Of a DNA stretch of 64,000 bases, positions 2,432-37,745 are shown piece by piece. A model generated the notes under the pieces. The model did not search any database and was not told the origin of the DNA. It saw nothing but the letters and a program-made list of their open reading frames with translations. Source of the DNA: a virus. Both the position numbers and the translations under genes were made by a program. The first letter of the stretch is position 1. The number at the start of each line of letters is the position of its first letter. Location of the stretch: positions 28,606 to 92,605 of the IMG/VR virus record IMGVR_UViG_3300037132_000276. One strand, 5' to 3'.

Positions 2432-3427
2432 ATGTGCCCGACAAATTATACCGGATGGCGTATGCCATACGGCTATACCGCAAAGGATAAAAAACCGTTT
2501 ATCAACCCCAAAGAAGCGAAAGTAGTAAAACATATTTACGAACTTGCTCTTTCCGGAAGAAGTAAGCGCGACATTCTCTATGAGCTGAACAATAAAAAAG
2601 TTTTATCCCAAACTGGTAAAGAATGGAGTTCCGGCACCCTCGTCTATATTTTCAAAGAAGAGAAAATCATGTTTTATGCCGGGTATATAAATGGCGAAAA
2701 AGATACTCATGAACCCATTATCGATCTTCCAACTGCAAAAAAACTTATTTCCCAGTTGATTGTTAAAACACTCCGTCCACATAATAAAGAATATCTCTTA
2801 AGTAATTTAAACATTCTCCACTGTGGTTATTGCAAAGGTAAAGCCAAAACAGTTAGCCTTCCTATCGGAGTTGATCAGATGCGGGATTATTATCTTTGTA
2901 CAACCAGGCAAATGTATGGCGCTCAGTCTGGAAAATGTAATGGCAGCAAAGTTGTCCCCCAAACAGAAGTGAATGAAACCGTATTAACAGATTTAACGGT
3001 TCATGCCGGGAATATCAATCTTGAAAAATTCCTTGAATCATATACCGGCAAAATAAAGAAAGAGGTTGATACCAAGATAAAATCCATTAAAAGCGAAATA
3101 GATATTTTGATGGAAAAACAATTTAGTGCAACTTCAAAAACAGAGATAGCGGAAATAACAGAACAAATCAACTCGTTCTTACAGTCTCGACAGAATATAT
3201 TAGCTCCCTTTACTATGGTTGCAAATGTTAAAGATATACGAACTGCGAAGAAAATTAAATTCCTCCCTCTTCCGGAACAAAAAATTCTTATAAAAAAATT
3301 AATTTATCGAATAGATTTGTTCTCCGACAAAGTAATAGTTCACTATAATTTTGGCATTTCAGCAAACGGCGATAACAAAAATGAGTTGAGGATTGTTCGT
3401 GGCAAGCTGGTACGAAAGAAAAAATAG
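2432..3427 (+). CDS. Large-serine-recombinase DNA-binding portion (recombinase domain + Zn ribbon + coiled coil) lacking the catalytic resolvase domain
   Basis: PYGY...INPKEAKVVKHIYELALSG...W; YLLSN...HCGYC...YYLC...C; ends LIYRIDL...IVHY; own RBS (GAGGT) before the ATG; no YxRxS catalytic N-domain. Confidence 0.75.
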   Translation: MCPTNYTGWRMPYGYTAKDKKPFINPKEAKVVKHIYELALSGRSKRDILYELNNKKVLSQTGKEWSSGTLVYIFKEEKIMFYAGYINGEKDTHEPIIDLPTAKKLISQLIVKTLRPHNKEYLLSNLNILHCGYCKGKAKTVSLPIGVDQMRDYYLCTTRQMYGAQSGKCNGSKVVPQTEVNETVLTDLTVHAGNINLEKFLESYTGKIKKEVDTKIKSIKSEIDILMEKQFSATSKTEIAEITEQINSFLQSRQNILAPFTMVANVKDIRTAKKIKFLPLPEQKILIKKLIYRIDLFSDKVIVHYNFGISANGDNKNELRIVRGKLVRKKK

Positions 3428-4517
3428 TCCTTTTATATGGTTGAAATGGTTTGACCCCCAACAAGGTGTTTATATCAGGGAATCAACAAATACATATTTC
3501 AGACCTTCAAAGATGGGATCGACTCCATGCTTGAAAGGGACAAAAGAAGGTATAAAAAAAGCAAATCAAATTTGTGAAGAAATTGAAAGTACTATAAAGT
3601 ATAATATTGCTGTATCACACTTTCCTGCTTTAAAAAGTAGTTTGTTGATTGGCGACGCTTTTATAATGTTCAAGAATATTAACCGGAATAAAAATAAAAG
3701 CACTATTAAGAATTATGAACTTTTCTTCGAAGTTTTCAAAAAAACTTTTAACGAGAAAGATCCGGTAAATTCCATAAATAAACAGTTGGCAGACCTTTGG
3801 CTATCTTCAGTCCGGAGTATGAAAACCCGGGACGGGAAGATTTTTAGTCAGAACTATGTTTATGGATTTCAGAAGAACTTAAAAAAGTTTCTGGGATTCC
3901 TGTTCGAAAACGAGTACCTAAAACCCTTCAAAATCAGTAAAGATGTTCAGGTAAATATTGAAGTTGGTAGAAAAATTATTTTCAGTGCGGGCCACATAAA
4001 CAGGATCTTTGACAATCTCGATAAGACCAACGGCAATCTTAAAACCTGCATATATCTTCTCGCTTATACCGGATTACGGCCAACTGACATTCTTTCCATA
4101 AACGCTGAAGATATTGACCTGAAAAATAAAGCATACCAATATTACTCTCCTAAGCTCAAAAAACATATTACCGTTCCCATCCATCCAAAACTACTACCAG
4201 CGCTTAAAGAACGTCTCTCAGCTATCGGAAAGGGTAGAATAATTGAATATAGCACGCATAATGCTTTAGCTCATGCTTTCAACAAATATCTACAGTTTTT
4301 GGAAATTGACGGTTTTGATTATACGCCCCGGACGTTCCGGAAATCGTTTGATACCTGGGCTTATGGGCTGGGGATGGATACAACAGCAAACAGTCGGTTG
4401 GTCGGCCATAGCATTACAACTGCAGAAAAACATTACCGGGAAGTGTATATGAACAGCCTTCGAAAGGAATTAAATAAGTTTGAACTACCCTCAAAAAAAC
4501 AGCAAAAAAAGAAGTGA
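3393..4517 (+). CDS. int: Tyrosine recombinase / phage integrase
   Basis: LAYTGLR (R-I), RTFRKSF (HxxR box with H replaced by R), LVGHS, terminal HY; adjacent to attP. Confidence 0.92.
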   Translation: MFVASWYERKNSPFIWLKWFDPQQGVYIRESTNTYFRPSKMGSTPCLKGTKEGIKKANQICEEIESTIKYNIAVSHFPALKSSLLIGDAFIMFKNINRNKNKSTIKNYELFFEVFKKTFNEKDPVNSINKQLADLWLSSVRSMKTRDGKIFSQNYVYGFQKNLKKFLGFLFENEYLKPFKISKDVQVNIEVGRKIIFSAGHINRIFDNLDKTNGNLKTCIYLLAYTGLRPTDILSINAEDIDLKNKAYQYYSPKLKKHITVPIHPKLLPALKERLSAIGKGRIIEYSTHNALAHAFNKYLQFLEIDGFDYTPRTFRKSFDTWAYGLGMDTTANSRLVGHSITTAEKHYREVYMNSLRKELNKFELPSKKQQKKK

Positions 4518-4521
4518 TTTT

Positions 4522-4774
4522 GGCACATTATGGGCACACTGGAAATTATCCCTTTTTCTCGTCTCCGTAAGTTGTTTATTTATAATGACTTAGTTGTGAC
4601 CCCAACGGGATTCGAACCCATATTCCCGCCGTGAAAGGGCGAAAAATGGCATCTATCATATATAAGTATTTAGATGATAATAAGTGTTTTCAGTCTGATA
4701 ATGCATTTTTTCACTCTTTAATATTAAAATAATTCGCATTTTCTAACTCTAATTTAGGCACATTTCGGGCACAC
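4522..4774. other. attP region with paired arm-type direct repeats
   Basis: GGCACATTATGGGCACAC (4522-4539) and GGCACATTTCGGGCACAC (4757-4774), 16/18 identical, flank the tRNA-derived core. Confidence 0.7.
4596..4641 (-). other. attP core: 3' half of tRNA-Glu(TTC), not a complete tRNA gene
   Basis: Minus strand CGCC-CTTTCAC-GGCG (anticodon TTC), T-arm ATGGG-TTCGAAT-CCCGT, 3' acceptor strand TGGGGTCAC; no D-arm or 5' acceptor strand. Confidence 0.85.
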
Positions 4775-6094: not shown

Positions 6095-6526
6095 TTATGT
6101 CGCCTGCACTAATCCTGCATCCACTTTTAACTGTGTGCCATAAGCGCGACAATTTTCAACAAAAGTATTATAATCTATGAACGCTTGTGGGGTCTGGGTC
6201 TTCGCAACATTATTAGCTAAGCGATTTAGTTTCAGCTCATCATCTACGCTATATTGCGCCCTGATCTTTGCAGTCACTATTTGATTTATGCTCTCATAAA
6301 GCGGGCAAGTCAAGAGGATTGGTGAGATTGTTGCAAAATCAAGTTCTGCTACTTGACATTCGGAATGTTGGTTGGTGAGGAAGTTTGGATCCTGGGTGTC
6401 CACTCCCCAATATTGTAAACCATTTACTTCGGCATACATATATGAGATTTCGCCGCTTGTGACGATCCCGAGTGTGGTATCTTGCGGAGGCGCAAGAACT
6501 GTTTTTTTAACACTGAAATAACGCAT
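6095..6526 (-). CDS. Putative tail-fibre assembly/associated protein
   Basis: KIRAQYSVDDELKL...YNTFVENCRAYG resembles small proteins that follow phage fibre genes; position. Confidence 0.45.
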   Translation of the reverse strand: MRYFSVKKTVLAPPQDTTLGIVTSGEISYMYAEVNGLQYWGVDTQDPNFLTNQHSECQVAELDFATISPILLTCPLYESINQIVTAKIRAQYSVDDELKLNRLANNVAKTQTPQAFIDYNTFVENCRAYGTQLKVDAGLVQAT

Positions 6527-7541
6527 TGTATATATCTCCTTTTTTGTTGTTAATAATCCATGTTTTTACAAAATTAATTTGATCGGGTACAACTTCTAAG
6601 ATTTTATTTACTACATAGATCAATGAATTTGTCCGTTTAGAATGGCTTAAGAATGAGGCTATGCGCGAAATGTCCGGATCTTTTTTCAGTTTCCGCTTTA
6701 TTCTAAATAGAGAACTTTTCCTGATTATTCTGATGTTAAACCAGGTCTTAAAACCTACAAAATCAATCCCGCTTCTCAAACTTCCTATTTTACTTTTCCT
6801 GTTTAGCTTGAGTTCAAGCTTTTCGATTTCCCTTTTTATTCGATTCCAACAGAAAAAAAGTTTACTCCGGCATCCATCGAGCAGAACAAAATCATCCATA
6901 TACCGAAAATAATCTTTAATCTTCAGCACTCTTTTAATGAAATTATCTATTGGGTTAAGCATCAGATTTGCAAGTATCTGACTGGTTACATTCCCCAACG
7001 CCAAACCAACGCCATGTTCTTTATCAAAAAATTTTGAGAACAGGTTTAGGGTTGGTTTACATTTTATTATTCTTTTTAATAGTCTTAATACATGTTTATG
7101 ACTTATACTATAAAAATATTTCTTGATATCAAGTTTTAGATAATATCCCTGATTTTTATATTTAATCAGAGCACGTTTAAGGCCATCGCTGGCTTTGTGT
7201 GTGCCGTATCCTTCCCTGCATGCATAACTACACGAAAGGAATCGCTTCTCAATTATTTTTCTGGTTGCTATTAACAACGCATGCTGAACAATCCTATCCT
7301 CCAAATGTGGGGCTTGAATTACTCGTTCTTTCGGTTCATGGACGGTAAACTGATATGCTGGTTTGGGATTATAATCACCGTTATCGAGTCTTATAAGTAA
7401 ATCGCTTAAGTTAACTGCAAGATTATTCTCATATAGCAAGAAATTATCCTTATATGTTTTACGTTTTTTCACTTCATTAAACGCCTGGAGTAATGTTTCG
7501 TAATTACACCAAATCTTTTTCAAATTCCCATATCTTTTCAT
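6507..7541 (-). CDS. DGR reverse transcriptase
   Basis: EPKERVI, DRIVQHA, YACREGYGTH, LKLDIKKYFYSI, GLALGNVTSQILAN (DGR-type SQ), YFRYMDDF, GIDFVGF; 344 aa without a maturase/endonuclease domain; next to TR and avd. Confidence 0.96.
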   Translation of the reverse strand: MKRYGNLKKIWCNYETLLQAFNEVKKRKTYKDNFLLYENNLAVNLSDLLIRLDNGDYNPKPAYQFTVHEPKERVIQAPHLEDRIVQHALLIATRKIIEKRFLSCSYACREGYGTHKASDGLKRALIKYKNQGYYLKLDIKKYFYSISHKHVLRLLKRIIKCKPTLNLFSKFFDKEHGVGLALGNVTSQILANLMLNPIDNFIKRVLKIKDYFRYMDDFVLLDGCRSKLFFCWNRIKREIEKLELKLNRKSKIGSLRSGIDFVGFKTWFNIRIIRKSSLFRIKRKLKKDPDISRIASFLSHSKRTNSLIYVVNKILEVVPDQINFVKTWIINNKKGDIYNALFQC

Positions 7542-7552
7542 TTTTAATTCCC

Positions 7553-7679
7553 GGATGATTAGAATTTCTAAATGTTCAATACTTTAATAATCATCCCGTT
7601 ATATTTTCTCATATTTCTTTGAGAGGACAATGTTCCCTTTAACATTGTGAGTCAATCATTTTCCCCTTTGAGGAAAATG
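7553..7679 (-). ncRNA. DGR RNA 3' spacer with stem-loops
   Basis: Inverted repeats GGATGATTA/TAATCATCC (7553-7596), ACAATGTT/AACATTGT (7627-7648) and CATTTTCC/GGAAAATG (7657-7679) between TR and RT. Confidence 0.6.
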
Positions 7680-7703
7680 CTCTTAGACATAATTTGTTAG
7701 AGT

Positions 7704-7815
7704 CAGGAACGCGCCGAAATATTGTTGTTGCTGTTCGTCCGATTGTTGTTCAAATTGAGATACCAGACACCCGCATTCGTCGTGTTGTTCCAATTGCCGA
7801 AGCGTATCGGACACA
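7704..7815 (-). repeat. DGR template repeat (TR)
   Basis: 112-bp ungapped match to 8262-8373; rich in AAC/AAT codons; all 17 mismatches at TR adenines on the coding strand. Confidence 0.97.
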
Positions 7816-7850
7816 TAGTCAAACATTGCCCTTTTGCCGCTTTTCGTATC

Positions 7851-8189
7851 CTATTGTAGTTCATCTTTTATCCACGCACCAACAAGTTTGCCAACCTCAT
7901 CAATTTTCAGTTGTGAAACTCTATGCTTTTGAGAATCTATATATTTCAACTCAAACGCAAGGTTCACAAACTGTCTTAAAACTTCATGTTTCACATTAAG
8001 CTCGCTGATCGTTGTCTTTTTGTGAAACCGCTTATTAACCGTTATGGCGGATTCAAATATTTCATATCCAAGCTCCCTTATTTTATTTGCCATCAAATAT
8101 TTTTCACTTTTCGGAAATTGCATAACCATAATGTGGTTATACAAAATCATATCCCGAATTTTCTTTACTATTAATAAATGTTCAGCCAT
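7851..8189 (-). CDS. avd: DGR accessory variability determinant (four-helix bundle)
   Basis: QFPKSEKYLMANKIR...LAFELKYI...IDEVGKLVGAWIK; lies between target and TR. Confidence 0.92.
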   Translation of the reverse strand: MAEHLLIVKKIRDMILYNHIMVMQFPKSEKYLMANKIRELGYEIFESAITVNKRFHKKTTISELNVKHEVLRQFVNLAFELKYIDSQKHRVSQLKIDEVGKLVGAWIKDELQ

Positions 8190-8219
8190 TTCTATCCTAT
8201 CACCATAAAAAAAATATAA

Positions 8220-8243
8220 GGGGATTCGCTACCGCTCATCCCC
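8220..8243 (-). promoter_or_regulatory. DGR target-recognition hairpin downstream of VR
   Basis: GGGGATGAGC-GGTA-GCGAATCCCC just after the target stop; GGTA fits the GRNA loop known from phage DGR hairpins; followed by a T-run. Confidence 0.75.
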
Positions 8244-8248
8244 ACATC

Positions 8249-9988
8249 TTAAACGTAAAGGCAGGAACGCGCCGAAAAAGAGTTGTAGCTGTACGTCCGA
8301 AAGCTGACCAAATAGAGAAACCAGACACCCGCAAACGCCGTGTTGTTCCAACTGCCGAAGCGTAGCGGACACAACTCAGAAACGATATATTGATAGAAAT
8401 AATCTGTTCCAAATTTATTAGTGCCACTAGGACTTACGGAATTATAGTTCAAAGGCAATCCACAAGCTGTAAGTTTATAAGCATTGGTTGTTCTGCTTGT
8501 CGAGAATCCAAATACTTGATTTGTGCTATTCCCGTATAATTGACCGACAGGCCCATCCCGAAATATGGGCGTTAATAGGTCAAAGTTTGCGGCAATAAAT
8601 GTCGAGTTAAAATGATCTGAAGTTGTTACGCTATTACCGCCGGTAACATTCGCAAGAGCAACGCTTTCTTTTAATGCATAAAAACTACCCGTGGTGGCTG
8701 TAAACCCGGTTCCGGAATAATCAGCTGATAGTCCCGAACTATTAACATAACTGCTGTCATAATTACGTTGTAAATAAAAAGTATTAGCATCGATAACGTT
8801 GACGGTAAAGAATGAGCCACCTATTAAATTATTCCACTCGGTTGTTGCTGCGCCGCCTGTCATTATCTGTATACCCGAAGTGTAACCATGTGTGGCAATT
8901 GTAAAAACTGCTTGAGCGGCGCGGGTAATTGCCGTGATATTTTTTGCCACAACATTGGCGGTCGTTAGCCCCTGGGCGACGATCCACTGATTGCCGTTAA
9001 TATCGGAAACACCACAATTTTGACCATTGTGGGTTGTCTTTGAAAAAGTTGAACCACTTCCGGTTTTCTTTGCCGCTGTTTGCGTGCTCCAATAACTATC
9101 GGTACATATTGTGAAGGTCACCGTTGCATCGTTAACGTCAGCGGTTGTATTATTACAGCCTTTCGGGAAGTTGATGGCCCCAGTCCCATCATACCATGCG
9201 CAATATGCGGTACTTGTTGCCGTTTGTCCGTGTGCTAAGCTCAGTAATGCGATTGCATCGAGGATAAAAATTGATGTGGCGGCAAAATTATTACCACGGG
9301 ATTTAGCTGCTGCCCAAGCCCCGCCTAGATTATCTGCCGGCGCCTGTCCGTTGCTTTTACAATTGGAGAAACTTCCTGCATAAGCGTTGCTTCCATTATT
9401 GTTTGTCGTTGCCGCTGAAGAAATTGGATTGCCGTTTTTAATCGATGATGCTATGCCCGCGGTGTTGTAAACAAAATTAGTCATTGACCAATCGTATTTA
9501 TCGAGGAAGAACCCTTCTTTAATAGATCCGCCGTCGACAAATGATCTATGAAGCGCGAAACTTGCCGCATTTGCATCTGTTTCATTTGCAAATGAGCGCT
9601 CGCCTAGTATATAAAGCGTATTATCAGAATTATACTTATAATAGAACTTCGGCACCCATACCATTATCGAATTATCGGTTAAACACAGATAATTTCCATA
9701 ATTGTCGTTGCCGATGGTGAACGTTCCGGAAAGCGGAATCATATACGCGGGCAAAAGACTTGCCGGGCAGATACCGACTCCGAATCCTTGCCCCCCTTGA
9801 ATCCCTATGTCGTTGACCGCGGTTGGAAATCCGGCTTTCGCCAGCACTACTTGAGGACTTATACGCTTTAATTTGTTACTTAAATTTGTTTCGCTCGCAT
9901 CTAAGACCAACAACGTGTCGTTGTTGAGATCAATGTCATAAAGAAGATCAAGCGTATCAACGTTCTTACCCACTATTTCTGTTGCCAT
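8249..9988 (-). CDS. DGR target: receptor-binding / tropism protein with C-terminal CLec-like variable region
   Basis: IGIQGGQGFGVG, VWVPKFYY, GFFLDKY, DINGNQW; C-terminus PLRFGSWNNTAFAGVWFLYLVSFRTYSYNSFSARSC encoded by VR. Confidence 0.92.
   Translation of the reverse strand: MATEIVGKNVDTLDLLYDIDLNNDTLLVLDASETNLSNKLKRISPQVVLAKAGFPTAVNDIGIQGGQGFGVGICPASLLPAYMIPLSGTFTIGNDNYGNYLCLTDNSIMVWVPKFYYKYNSDNTLYILGERSFANETDANAASFALHRSFVDGGSIKEGFFLDKYDWSMTNFVYNTAGIASSIKNGNPISSAATTNNNGSNAYAGSFSNCKSNGQAPADNLGGAWAAAKSRGNNFAATSIFILDAIALLSLAHGQTATSTAYCAWYDGTGAINFPKGCNNTTADVNDATVTFTICTDSYWSTQTAAKKTGSGSTFSKTTHNGQNCGVSDINGNQWIVAQGLTTANVVAKNITAITRAAQAVFTIATHGYTSGIQIMTGGAATTEWNNLIGGSFFTVNVIDANTFYLQRNYDSSYVNSSGLSADYSGTGFTATTGSFYALKESVALANVTGGNSVTTSDHFNSTFIAANFDLLTPIFRDGPVGQLYGNSTNQVFGFSTSRTTNAYKLTACGLPLNYNSVSPSGTNKFGTDYFYQYIVSELCPLRFGSWNNTAFAGVWFLYLVSFRTYSYNSFSARSCLYV
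8262..8373 (-). repeat. DGR variable repeat (VR)
   Basis: Copy of TR with 11 A>T, 4 A>G and 2 A>C changes; ends in the GC element CGGCGCG. Confidence 0.97.
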
Positions 9989-28137: not shown

Positions 28138-29055
28138 TTAATTTGCATTTGGTAATATCCTTGCTATATCTTTTTTGGCGGCTTCGGCTAACATCATTTG
28201 GACACTTTGCTTGGTGCTATCATATGTTTCACCTAAAATTCTCAGGGCTTCAACCTTTGGGTGGACCCATCCATCGGAATCCTCTGTCATAACCCTGAAT
28301 GTCATATATAAGCTGTGCTGCGTTTTGTTGCTCGTTTCGTTCATAGATCCAAACTTGCCAAAATCAAATTTTTCTCGGTTAATATTTGGATTGGTTTCGA
28401 ATCTTACCATATTTTTATAGATGCTGCCATCTTCCAACTCTGCGCCTTTAATATGAGTTAATTTATCGCCCCATAAATAGCCATTTTTTTGAACTCGCTT
28501 GGGGTTATTCCTTCTCAACAAGTCTGCATCTGCTATGGTCGTTGCCTGTCGTATGCTCCCCTCGTTATATTTATTAGATACAATGCTGGGCTTTAATCTT
28601 ACGGCTTCGCTGTAAACTTCTTGCGGCATTTCTCGTTTACTCTTAGCGCCCGGCGTTCCATGTTCAAAAGGAATAATCAAATATCGCTTGCCGTCTTTAC
28701 TTATCCGCACTTTATCGCTTGTCTGTAAAGCTTTTTTCATGTCAAAGAGCTGGAAACCAGACTCTAAGTACTTCGCATAATCTTTTGTGTGCTCAATTCT
28801 ATAATAAAGTGGATCGCCCTGATATGGATATTTAATCCCTTCGACTATACCGCGAGCATAACCGCCTTCCGAATGCTTGAACTTACTTGCGGCAACATTA
28901 AGCCAACTTTGCGTTACGTGATCACCAGCAACATGAATGGCTTCCTGCAGATAACTTCCATTCTTATCAAGTTCTTGTTCATAACGTCGCTGGATCTCTC
29001 TTACGAGTTCGTTTAATGCAGAATAATCAAGGTCGTAAACAATTTCATAATTCAT
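28138..29055 (-). CDS. Neck / head-tail joining protein
   Basis: YAKYLESG...FDMK, KDGKRYLIIPF, YMTFRVMTEDSDGWVHP as in Twort-like neck proteins. Confidence 0.7.
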   Translation of the reverse strand: MNYEIVYDLDYSALNELVREIQRRYEQELDKNGSYLQEAIHVAGDHVTQSWLNVAASKFKHSEGGYARGIVEGIKYPYQGDPLYYRIEHTKDYAKYLESGFQLFDMKKALQTSDKVRISKDGKRYLIIPFEHGTPGAKSKREMPQEVYSEAVRLKPSIVSNKYNEGSIRQATTIADADLLRRNNPKRVQKNGYLWGDKLTHIKGAELEDGSIYKNMVRFETNPNINREKFDFGKFGSMNETSNKTQHSLYMTFRVMTEDSDGWVHPKVEALRILGETYDSTKQSVQMMLAEAAKKDIARILPNAN

Positions 29056-36323: not shown

Positions 36324-37745
36324 TTAGCTGTTTAATATGCTTCCAACATTTTTATAGATTACTATTTTATTTCCGTTAAATACCTTCGGGGTGAAATAGA
36401 TCTTCTGTAGCCAACGGACTGCATCAGAAATTGTTGCAAGAGGCAACCGGCTCATGGTACCAAGTTGGTCAACCCTTAACACTTGGTCAAAATCCCAATC
36501 GATAACCATCACATTGGTTGTGCCCGGAACGGTTGAACCGTCGTCTATCTTTGTTGTAGAGGCGGCGGCAAAGCTCTTGAAATATTTATAATCGGCAATG
36601 GTTGTGCCTGCTGTAAGTTTGCGGTAAATGTCAAATTTTTCAGCCGCTCTATTATCCGGCGAACCATTATCGGATATTGTAAATACAACCTTTTTGCTTG
36701 CTGCAACTACTACGCCCGTAATCTCGAAAGCTGCCTGAGCACCATATTTATTTACAGGAATTATTGCATAGTCGTATGTCGCGGCTGGGAGCAAACTGCC
36801 AACCAGGTTATCTGTTGTGGCTGTACAAACGCTTGAGCTTAATGCGTTTGGTGCGCGATCGCTCATACTTGCGAAGGTTGTTCCCGCTTTATTCAATTTC
36901 GGGTGCGGCCGTCCAAGATAAGTTTCGCCTCTATGACGTAAGAAAACCGAGGTATCAATATTACCGCCACCGGAACCAATTTCTAACTTTTTGGCTTTAA
37001 CATAAATTTCGGCAACACTGGCTCCATTAACAAAATATGTCTTATTCGCAATCAATTGATTGACGTAATCTGTATAAGCTTGGTTGCCCATCCAGACTTT
37101 TAGGTTCATAGAATTACCATAATTGTCTGCAATTATTCTGCCCGCGTTATTAAAATCTTCGAGTTGCATGCATTTTCCCTGTTTGTCAATAATGTTTTCA
37201 TTGGGATTTTTCATGCGTTTTATCGCTTGCGGGATAATTCCATTGGGGTCCGTAGAAAGCAATGTTGCATCACCGTTAACAGAAACAACTTCCAGTTTTC
37301 TAAGCATTGCAATTGTTTTCATGCGGGTTACGGTGGCTACGAGATCACCATTGATAACGTCATTTGCATTTGCGAAGTAAGGAACTTTACCAACTGCTCC
37401 CACTAGCTTTACCTGCTCAAAATCACGTTTCAAGTCTTCGTCGTACTCTTCCGGAAGATCGCCGCTGGAATAGGAACTTGCATCTCCTAATTCATTCAGA
37501 ATACTGAATTCTTCAACTGCTGAAGTTGCTTTCCCTTTCTTTATTGCTTTCCAAAAAGCGCAGGAATTTTCATTTGCTTCAACGATTTTCAACGTTGAAT
37601 CCAAGCTTTCTTTTCTCAATGCAGAGAACCCGGTTTGATCCGTGGTTCCCATGCTGTAATCCATGTCTAACGCTTTAGCAAGTTCACGTTCCTTTGCAGG
37701 GGCCATGCTAAAAGCATCTTCGCCGAAAAACATCATCTCATCCAT
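36324..37745 (-). CDS. Major capsid protein (SPO1/Twort-like HK97 fold with inserted Ig-like domain)
   Basis: LAKALDMDY...GFSALRKESLD, KATSAVEEF, IIDKQG, YDYAIIPVN...FDIYRK, MSRLPLA, IVIYKNV. Confidence 0.88.
   Translation of the reverse strand: MDEMMFFGEDAFSMAPAKERELAKALDMDYSMGTTDQTGFSALRKESLDSTLKIVEANENSCAFWKAIKKGKATSAVEEFSILNELGDASSYSSGDLPEEYDEDLKRDFEQVKLVGAVGKVPYFANANDVINGDLVATVTRMKTIAMLRKLEVVSVNGDATLLSTDPNGIIPQAIKRMKNPNENIIDKQGKCMQLEDFNNAGRIIADNYGNSMNLKVWMGNQAYTDYVNQLIANKTYFVNGASVAEIYVKAKKLEIGSGGGNIDTSVFLRHRGETYLGRPHPKLNKAGTTFASMSDRAPNALSSSVCTATTDNLVGSLLPAATYDYAIIPVNKYGAQAAFEITGVVVAASKKVVFTISDNGSPDNRAAEKFDIYRKLTAGTTIADYKYFKSFAAASTTKIDDGSTVPGTTNVMVIDWDFDQVLRVDQLGTMSRLPLATISDAVRWLQKIYFTPKVFNGNKIVIYKNVGSILNS

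Follow-up and report, generated by a model that had tools for sequence, protein, structure and literature searches.

A complete and apparently recently active diversity-generating retroelement of the BPP-1 type in an uncultured temperate phage

Does the cluster of genes and repeats at positions 6095–9988 of a 64,000-nucleotide stretch of viral DNA constitute a complete diversity-generating retroelement (DGR), and has it been at work? The stretch, referred to here as the window, covers positions 28,606 to 92,605 of the IMG/VR virus record IMGVR_UViG_3300037132_000276, which is estimated to be 72% complete. An earlier, sequence-only reading of it had proposed a complete, apparently functional DGR arranged as in Bordetella phage BPP-1 and directed at a tail receptor-binding protein. 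We found every defining part to be present, intact and in the BPP-1 order, and each defining DGR feature that could be checked was there. We conclude, at a probability of roughly 0.93, that the locus is a canonical BPP-1-type DGR of a temperate, contractile-tailed phage; the element is complete, apparently active until recently, and appears to diversify the tip of what is most likely a lectin-fold tail protein. All genes of the cassette region lie on the minus strand and read, 5′ to 3′, as the target gene with its variable region, a hairpin, avd, the template repeat, a 152-nt spacer, the reverse transcriptase (RT) gene and an open reading frame (ORF) of 143 amino acids. The core parts are as follows.

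8249–9988, minus strand: DGR target gene, 579 amino acids (ORF, AlphaFold model and homologue search)
8262–8373, minus strand: variable region (VR), codons 540–576 of the 579-codon ORF, with 17 substitutions relative to the template repeat
8220–8243, minus strand: target-site hairpin, GGGGAT-GA-GC[GGTA]GC-GA-ATCCCC
7851–8189, minus strand: avd, accessory variability determinant, 112 amino acids (Pfam bAvd, PHROG and NCBIfam)
7704–7815, minus strand: template repeat (TR), 32 adenines and 12 AAY codons, with homology that reaches 7698
6507–7541, minus strand: DGR reverse transcriptase, 344 amino acids (LGNVTSQ and YMDD motifs; Pfam RVT_1)

The relationship between the two repeats is the signature on which the identification turns. 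TR (7704–7815) and VR (8262–8373) align without gaps over 112 columns, and 17 of the 17 mismatches fall at TR adenines as read on the coding (minus) strand, the TR core containing 32 adenines. These are the counts given by the sequence-only reading, and the two peptides that it quoted match exactly the peptides encoded by TR and VR. Homology runs on for six bases (to 7698 in TR and 8256 in VR, 118 nt in all), and in this extension one A-to-C and one C-to-T difference appear; taken as a reference value, the hypergeometric chance that all 19 mismatches of such a set would fall on adenine is 4.5e-13. TR, the adenine-rich copy, is intergenic, and VR lies within the ORF at 9988–8249. The TR adenines lie almost exclusively at codon positions 1 and 2 (18 and 13 of them, with 2 at position 3). 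Some 10^19 different peptides are accessible to the system if stop codons are avoided. The reading frame of VR, when followed through the TR copy, runs into a TGA.

At its 3′ end, VR closes with 14 invariant, GC-rich nucleotides (8275–8262) that resemble an IMH (initiation of mutagenic homing) element. Both repeats share the GC-rich CGGCGCGTTCCTG, after which VR continues as CCTTTAC and TR as ACTCTAA. The same boundary contrast, GCCTTT in VR versus GACTCT in TR, is also present in three relatives, and because it recurs, the extra A/C difference (TGACTCT in TR, TGCCTTT in VR) is a fixed boundary difference rather than a product of mutagenesis. Judged from the sequence, this difference is probably of the IMH*/IMH type, as expected for directionality.

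Both proteins of the cassette were recognized. Avd matched Pfam bAvd (2.7e-24) and the PHROG family "Avd protein of DGR" (2.1e-29), and it passed the NCBIfam DGR-Avd equivalog model (DivGenRetAVD, NF033474) with 90.4 bits against a cut-off of 80. The RT carries the DGR motif [LIV]GxxxSQ as LGNVTSQ and the YxDD motif as YMDD. Its best match in the PDB was the BPP-1 enzyme bRT (8ub7, 1.8e-39); the best group II match reached 1.7e-17, and group II and retron-type RTs scored 1e-17 or worse. The sequence-only reading had made its own claim depend on where this RT would fall in a phylogeny. We built a maximum-likelihood tree in which eleven relatives stood alongside four group II RTs from plasmids and five DGR reference RTs (BPP-1, Vibrio VP58.5, ANMV-1, a crAss-like phage and Clostridium phage Saumur), and in this tree the window RT grouped with the DGR RTs, on their side of a split from the group II RTs with support of 100/100. 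The RTs of the relatives form one group, with support of 94/96.

We then addressed whether the element has been active. A protein from another archive (P0122), which falls in the same 90%-identity cluster as the window target, is identical to it over residues 1–541. Its 11 differing residues, compared at the protein level, all lie within 542–571, all at codons that contain a TR adenine, and each can be reached from the TR codon by adenine changes alone. Another close pair of target proteins (P0005 and P0126) differs at five residues, all of them in VR. Differences confined to VR at such a very recent split need retrohoming; therefore, the element is, or very recently was, active, and this comparison of two otherwise identical target copies lends support to the description "apparently functional" in the sequence-only reading.

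The composition of the substitutions is worth recording separately. In the window VR, 11 of the 17 adenine substitutions are A-to-T, yielding four Phe and three Tyr residues. Among 32 related TR/VR pairs, A-to-T makes up just 28% of the changes, and A-to-G is the commonest. The A-to-T excess possibly reflects selection for an aromatic binding face in this particular variant. The VR of the sister copy P0122 is less aromatic than that of the window.

A DGR target site is also expected to be marked by a hairpin, and published examples have GC-rich stems of 7–10 bp and GRNA loops located 4–34 bp after VR, with both stem and loop required for homing (Guo et al. 2011, PMC3240598). In the window, a hairpin begins 5 nt past the TAA stop codon of the target gene and 12 nt past the end of the TR/VR homology. 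It consists of a 6-bp outer stem, a tandem G·A/A·G step, 2 bp of GC and a GGTA loop, which fits GRNA, and its eight Watson–Crick and two G·A pairs give a DNA fold with a z score of −3.65. Compared with the published stems, that of the window is less GC-rich. A YGRTAR loop occupies the equivalent position in 28 of 30 distinct DGR-positive relatives, and 24 of the 30 have a core of the form GA-NN-GNTA-NN-GA in which the NN positions are paired and covary while the outer stems differ in sequence. We also considered a terminator function for this hairpin. Promoter and terminator scans gave no excess over shuffled sequences and nothing at the hairpin, and in the relatives inspected the run of T after the hairpin is absent, which leaves such a role unsupported.

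In BPP-1, cryo-electron microscopy has revealed an Avd-binding stem-loop after TR, a long-range "Stop" duplex around TR and a long RT-binding stem, with a further stem-loop and A-rich run next to the Stop duplex (Handa et al., bioRxiv 10.1101/2023.10.23.563531). The 152-nt spacer of the window folds better than shuffled sequences (z −3.2), and the window has counterparts of all four BPP-1 RNA elements.

7821–7833, minus strand: 5′ strand of the long-range duplex, −16 kcal/mol, present in the minimum-free-energy fold of the whole RNA
7657–7679, minus strand: first spacer stem-loop, 10 bp, present in the fold and, by inspection, in all relatives
7623–7636, minus strand: 3′ strand of the long-range duplex, following an invariant AGGGA motif and overlapping a local hairpin at 7648–7627
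7599–7624, minus strand: short stem-loop and then an A-rich run, present in the fold, with a conserved GAAAT-type motif in alignments
7552–7598, minus strand: long 3′ spacer stem with an internal loop, conserved as GGTAG/AAGTA ... GAAnnnC

The 12-bp duplex that brackets TR may be the equivalent of the "cPRT Stop" duplex in BPP-1. By position, the stem-loop at 7657–7679 may correspond to the Avd-binding stem-loop of BPP-1 and the stem at 7552–7598 to its RT-binding stem, and the stem-loop with its A-rich run at 7599–7624 would, by analogy with the BPP-1 description, belong to the Stop duplex region. The long-range duplex is 83% paired over 26 relatives. It contains 79 double-change cells, compared with 32.8±5 in shuffles, of which 0 of 500 were as high, and it scores 0.586 for covariation, where slid controls reach at most 0.18. 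These values belong to a register one column over from the one initially considered, which failed at the family level. The long 3′ stem shows compensatory changes in eight of its 11 pairs (RNAalifold). No Rfam model matched the spacer. Separately, spacer positions 7634–7627 can pair either locally, in an 8-bp hairpin with 7648–7641, or with the sequence upstream of TR at 7821–7833. The two pairings are mutually exclusive, so that a conformational switch is possible in this sub-lineage.

What protein, then, does the element vary? We modelled the target with AlphaFold (AF2) on 62 homologues and obtained a predicted local distance difference test score (pLDDT) of 86.9 and a predicted template modelling score (pTM) of 0.86. 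Residues 81–579 of the model superimposed on TaqVP (5vf4), the variable protein of a Thermus aquaticus prophage DGR, with Z 29.7 and a root-mean-square deviation of 3.1 Å over 303 residues at 21% identity. The next structural matches were Mtd (Z 13.5), TvpA (Z 12.4) and formylglycine-generating enzymes (FGEs; Z about 11). The model thus indicates a TaqVP-like C-type-lectin fold of the FGE type, a known carrier of DGR variable regions (PMC6328139), with VR at its C-terminus. In the model, residues 345–433 (window 8690–8956) form a beta-barrel inserted into the lectin fold, which resembles the FCCH domain of ubiquitin E1 as well as outer domains found in the T1 and FCWL1 tail-tube proteins (Z 10–11.6). 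Some homologues bear the Pfam label E1_FCCH (PF16190). The N-terminal ~60 residues are poorly modelled and, unlike the body, are not conserved among homologues, a pattern that fits an exchangeable adaptor for virion attachment.

By sequence, the target matched no Pfam family and gave no meaningful match in the PDB; its lone PHROG match was phrog_2889, of unknown function, over residues 518–578. A protein search of GenBank phages returned no full-length homologue. Matches there covered residues 74–340 (window 8969–9769) only, at 26–37% identity and without reaching the VR end, and were to hypothetical proteins from Campylobacter phages, CP220-like and other, and from a human faecal phage. The cassette had no blastn match among GenBank phages. 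Immediately upstream of the target gene lie genes for Baseplate_J, a LysM plus sheath-initiator protein, a tail lysin, a tape measure protein and a protein that weakly matches tail fibres. With tail genes of this kind next to it and an N-terminus that is not conserved, the target can reasonably be proposed to have a distal tail or receptor-binding role, and from the position of the gene and the modelled fold it is most likely such a protein.

The setting is that of a temperate phage, as the sequence-only reading had supposed, with a contractile tail. A tyrosine integrase gene (window 3393–4517; PF00589, PHROG integrase) lies just past the cassette on the opposite strand. It adjoins a tRNA-like sequence at 4597–4653, which scored 25.6 bits with the Rfam tRNA model, below the threshold of 29. 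Related cassettes were found in proviruses and bacterial genomes. Together, the integrase, the tRNA-like sequence and the provirus relatives support a temperate lifestyle well. The same reading had described a SPO1/Twort-like virion module. A contractile-tail baseplate and a SPO1-like capsid protein are indeed encoded, but the resemblance is distant: the best named-phage matches of the capsid protein (window 36324–37745) are to SPO1-like myoviruses of Bacillus, Listeria, Enterococcus and Staphylococcus, at 24–27% (about 26%) identity. SPO1-like Herelleviridae are known as a strictly virulent group, yet this phage, with its distantly Herelleviridae-like capsid, carries a tyrosine integrase. We regard it as an uncultured, temperate, contractile-tailed phage of Ignavibacteria-like bacteria with a distantly SPO1-like capsid. 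Our literature searches returned no paper linking DGRs with Ignavibacteria phages.

Several observations weigh against this picture or narrow it. The placement of the RT holds within a tree that set DGR RTs against group II RTs alone. A duplex that would prime cDNA synthesis, formed between the 3′ end of TR and the spacer, was looked for by eye, and no consistent pairing was seen. Current activity in this particular genome is suggested by one sister sequence at the protein level, and exact-pattern scans with a VR-flank pattern or a TR/spacer pattern found no further sister contigs. The target itself falls under none of the Pfam or PHROG tail-fibre families, and TaqVP, the solved protein nearest to it, is monomeric and has no assigned function. 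No other VR matching TR was found in the 92.6-kb record, the sole further match to TR being a 21-nt chance match; further targets are possible, as only 72% of the genome is represented.

Three other explanations can be set against these data. If the RT belonged to a group II intron or a retron, the repeat would be an unrelated duplication. The RT does draw scores from the group II model TIGR04416 (124.9 bits) and from the retron St85 model NF038233 (69 bits), but they stay far under the respective cut-offs of 300 and 235. Rfam found no group II intron RNA (E up to 1) and no retron RNA at the locus, the tree separates the RT from the group II RTs with maximal support, avd adjoins it, and the adenine-only mismatch pattern has a chance of about 4e-13. 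The model scores, Rfam and the tree refute such an identity, to which we attach virtually no probability. The locus might instead be a fossil, a DGR with recognizable parts that has lost retrohoming and whose VR is frozen. Decay does happen in this family, in which one relative described below lacks the TR, the spacer and the RT while others retain the hairpin alone, and the case for current activity here was made by comparing protein sequences. Against this stand the intact ORFs of the RT, Avd and target, the catalytic YMDD, and the intact TR, IMH-like end, hairpin and RNA structures. Above all, the sister copy differs at just 11 TR-adenine codons of VR and at none of the other 541 residues. 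Fossil status is accordingly very improbable.

The remaining explanation concerns the target rather than the element. A lectin-fold protein encoded at the end of a tail module could be a surface or secreted protein that is not part of the virion, for instance an adhesin expressed by the lysogen or a superinfection factor. The lack of a tail-fibre family match and the monomeric state and unassigned role of TaqVP are compatible with this, as is the location of the gene, the last large one of the late operon and adjoining attP and the integrase, a common place for cargo genes. However, its N-terminus has neither a signal peptide nor a lipobox, and the gene is co-oriented and tightly packed with baseplate and fibre-like genes. 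Its N-terminal ~57 residues vary among lineages over a conserved body, as in fibre adaptors; 428 viral contigs carry relatives; and tail proteins make up most of the viral DGR targets found in surveys (PMC8144416). A non-virion target is thus an unlikely alternative, if one with a stronger claim than the two preceding it, and we retain the distal tail or receptor-binding protein as the preferred assignment.

Downstream of the RT gene, the cassette is followed by one further conserved gene.

6095–6526, minus strand: conserved gene of 143 amino acids, function unassigned, overlapping the RT stop codon by 20 nt

Its product had no match in Pfam, PHROG or NCBIfam, nor did those of the 155- and 260-amino-acid ORFs downstream. 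Its matches in Atlas were all hypothetical proteins of viruses, and leads to XkdW and to Caudo_TAP, a tail-fibre assembly family, stayed below threshold. A homologue of the 143-amino-acid gene directly follows the target gene in relatives that have no cassette (L012 and L013) and follows the RT gene when the cassette is present. This synteny places the cassette between the target and a partner gene. The proposal that the cassette lies between the fibre gene and its probable assembly gene therefore stands with respect to the conserved neighbour, but "assembly" is a guess.

The target belongs to a large family. More than 1300 proteins fall into it. The family is present on 428 IMG/VR contigs and at 75 loci in bacterial genomes, and also as prophages in many phyla. 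Its nearest relatives in bacterial genomes are in Melioribacter and Ignavibacteriaceae (45–52% identity), and those further removed come from Bacteroidota, Proteobacteria and Campylobacterota. We fetched viral loci from 80 of the 428 contigs for comparison. In these loci the cassette either lies between the target and the 143-amino-acid gene or is absent, and about 38 of the 80 have the arrangement target–avd–TR–RT with adenine-specific differences. In 32 distinct related TR/VR pairs, the share of changed positions is 56% for TR adenines and 1.2% for other bases.

Some members of the family carry remnants. L009, an IMG/VR record of 92,107 bases rated 100% complete by CheckV, holds a decayed DGR at 6330–6900, and L018 holds another. 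In L009 the target and the GGTA hairpin persist, as does avd, which is intact and 79% identical; TR, the spacer and the RT gene are gone, and the 143-amino-acid gene starts 50 nt past avd. No RT was found anywhere in this complete record, in a search in which the positive controls matched. The edge of the deletion immediately follows AGAAGGG, where the 5′ strand of the duplex that brackets TR begins. In two cassette-free relatives, a small ORF beginning MFYVYILEC, GIY-YIG-like by eye, is located between the target and the 143-amino-acid gene (L007, 7656–8011; L008, 7599–7957), and in L008 a hairpin remnant is still present past the stop codon. We tentatively suggest a joint reading, doubtful as a whole, in which the conserved hairpin core GA-NN-G(R)TA-NN-GA of this environmental family, with two covarying pairs flanked by tandem G·A mismatches, points to shape- or sequence-specific recognition of the hairpin by a DGR or host protein, and the cassette behaves as a module that is gained and lost. 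For the latter part we have in mind the avd-only and hairpin-only remnants and the deletion edge at the 5′ strand of the TR-bracketing duplex.

The likeness to BPP-1, whose DGR is ordered mtd-VR, IMH, hairpin, avd, TR, Sp and brt, extends beyond gene order and strand logic, which are identical. The two have in common adenine-specific TR/VR differences, the Avd family and a GRNA-loop hairpin after VR, and in both there is a spacer stem-loop following TR, a long 3′ stem and a long-range duplex that encloses TR. Among solved structures, bRT comes closest to the window RT, and both phages are temperate, with attP at a tRNA gene or tRNA-like sequence. They differ in other respects. The window RT is less than 40% identical to the RTs of named phages, those of Bordetella phages included. 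Mtd has beta-prism and beta-sandwich trimerization domains, which are not seen in the window target; outside the lectin core, the target is not Mtd-like, and as a whole it resembles TaqVP rather than Mtd and has the extra barrel domain. The stem of the window hairpin is broken by the tandem G·A pairs as well as being less GC-rich. BPP-1 is a 42-kb phage, whereas the window virion is a large contractile-tailed one with a distantly SPO1-like capsid, and the host lineages differ. TaqVP shares with the target the FGE-type lectin fold, an extreme C-terminal VR and an invariant last strand; the target is about 200 residues longer, owing to the N-terminal ~60–80 residues and the barrel at 345–433. 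Surveys have described thousands of viral DGRs on tail proteins with C-type-lectin variable regions, and the present element, with its target in a tail module, its lectin-type VR, its place on an IMG/VR phage contig and its signs of ongoing variation, resembles those viral DGRs (Roux et al. 2021, PMC8144416).

By homology with BPP-1, the element would work as follows. A transcript spanning the 3′ end of avd, TR and the spacer would fold and form a ribonucleoprotein together with the RT and an Avd pentamer. In this complex the RT would copy TR into cDNA with misincorporation at template adenines. Two features would direct the cDNA to replace the final ~112 nt of the target gene, namely VR's GC-rich, IMH-like end and the GGTA-loop hairpin just downstream. 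As many as 20 codons, of which 12 are AAY, could in this way be re-randomized on the ligand-binding face of the TaqVP/Mtd-like C-type-lectin fold. TR itself would stay unchanged because its 3′ boundary, which is IMH*-like, differs.

This element is a well-documented example of a known system, and it does not change the understanding of how DGRs work. Its value lies in being a cleanly annotated, evidently recently active DGR from a phage lineage that has no cultured representative. About 30 related cassettes provide independent covariation support for the GRNA target hairpin and for the long-range duplex around TR, and a very large, unnamed family of lectin-fold tail proteins is now tied to the solved structure of TaqVP. 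The element should thus be useful mainly as a well-characterized reference for this large uncultured family. Since its target is most likely a distal tail or receptor-binding protein, the system would let the phage population track changing receptors on the host surface.

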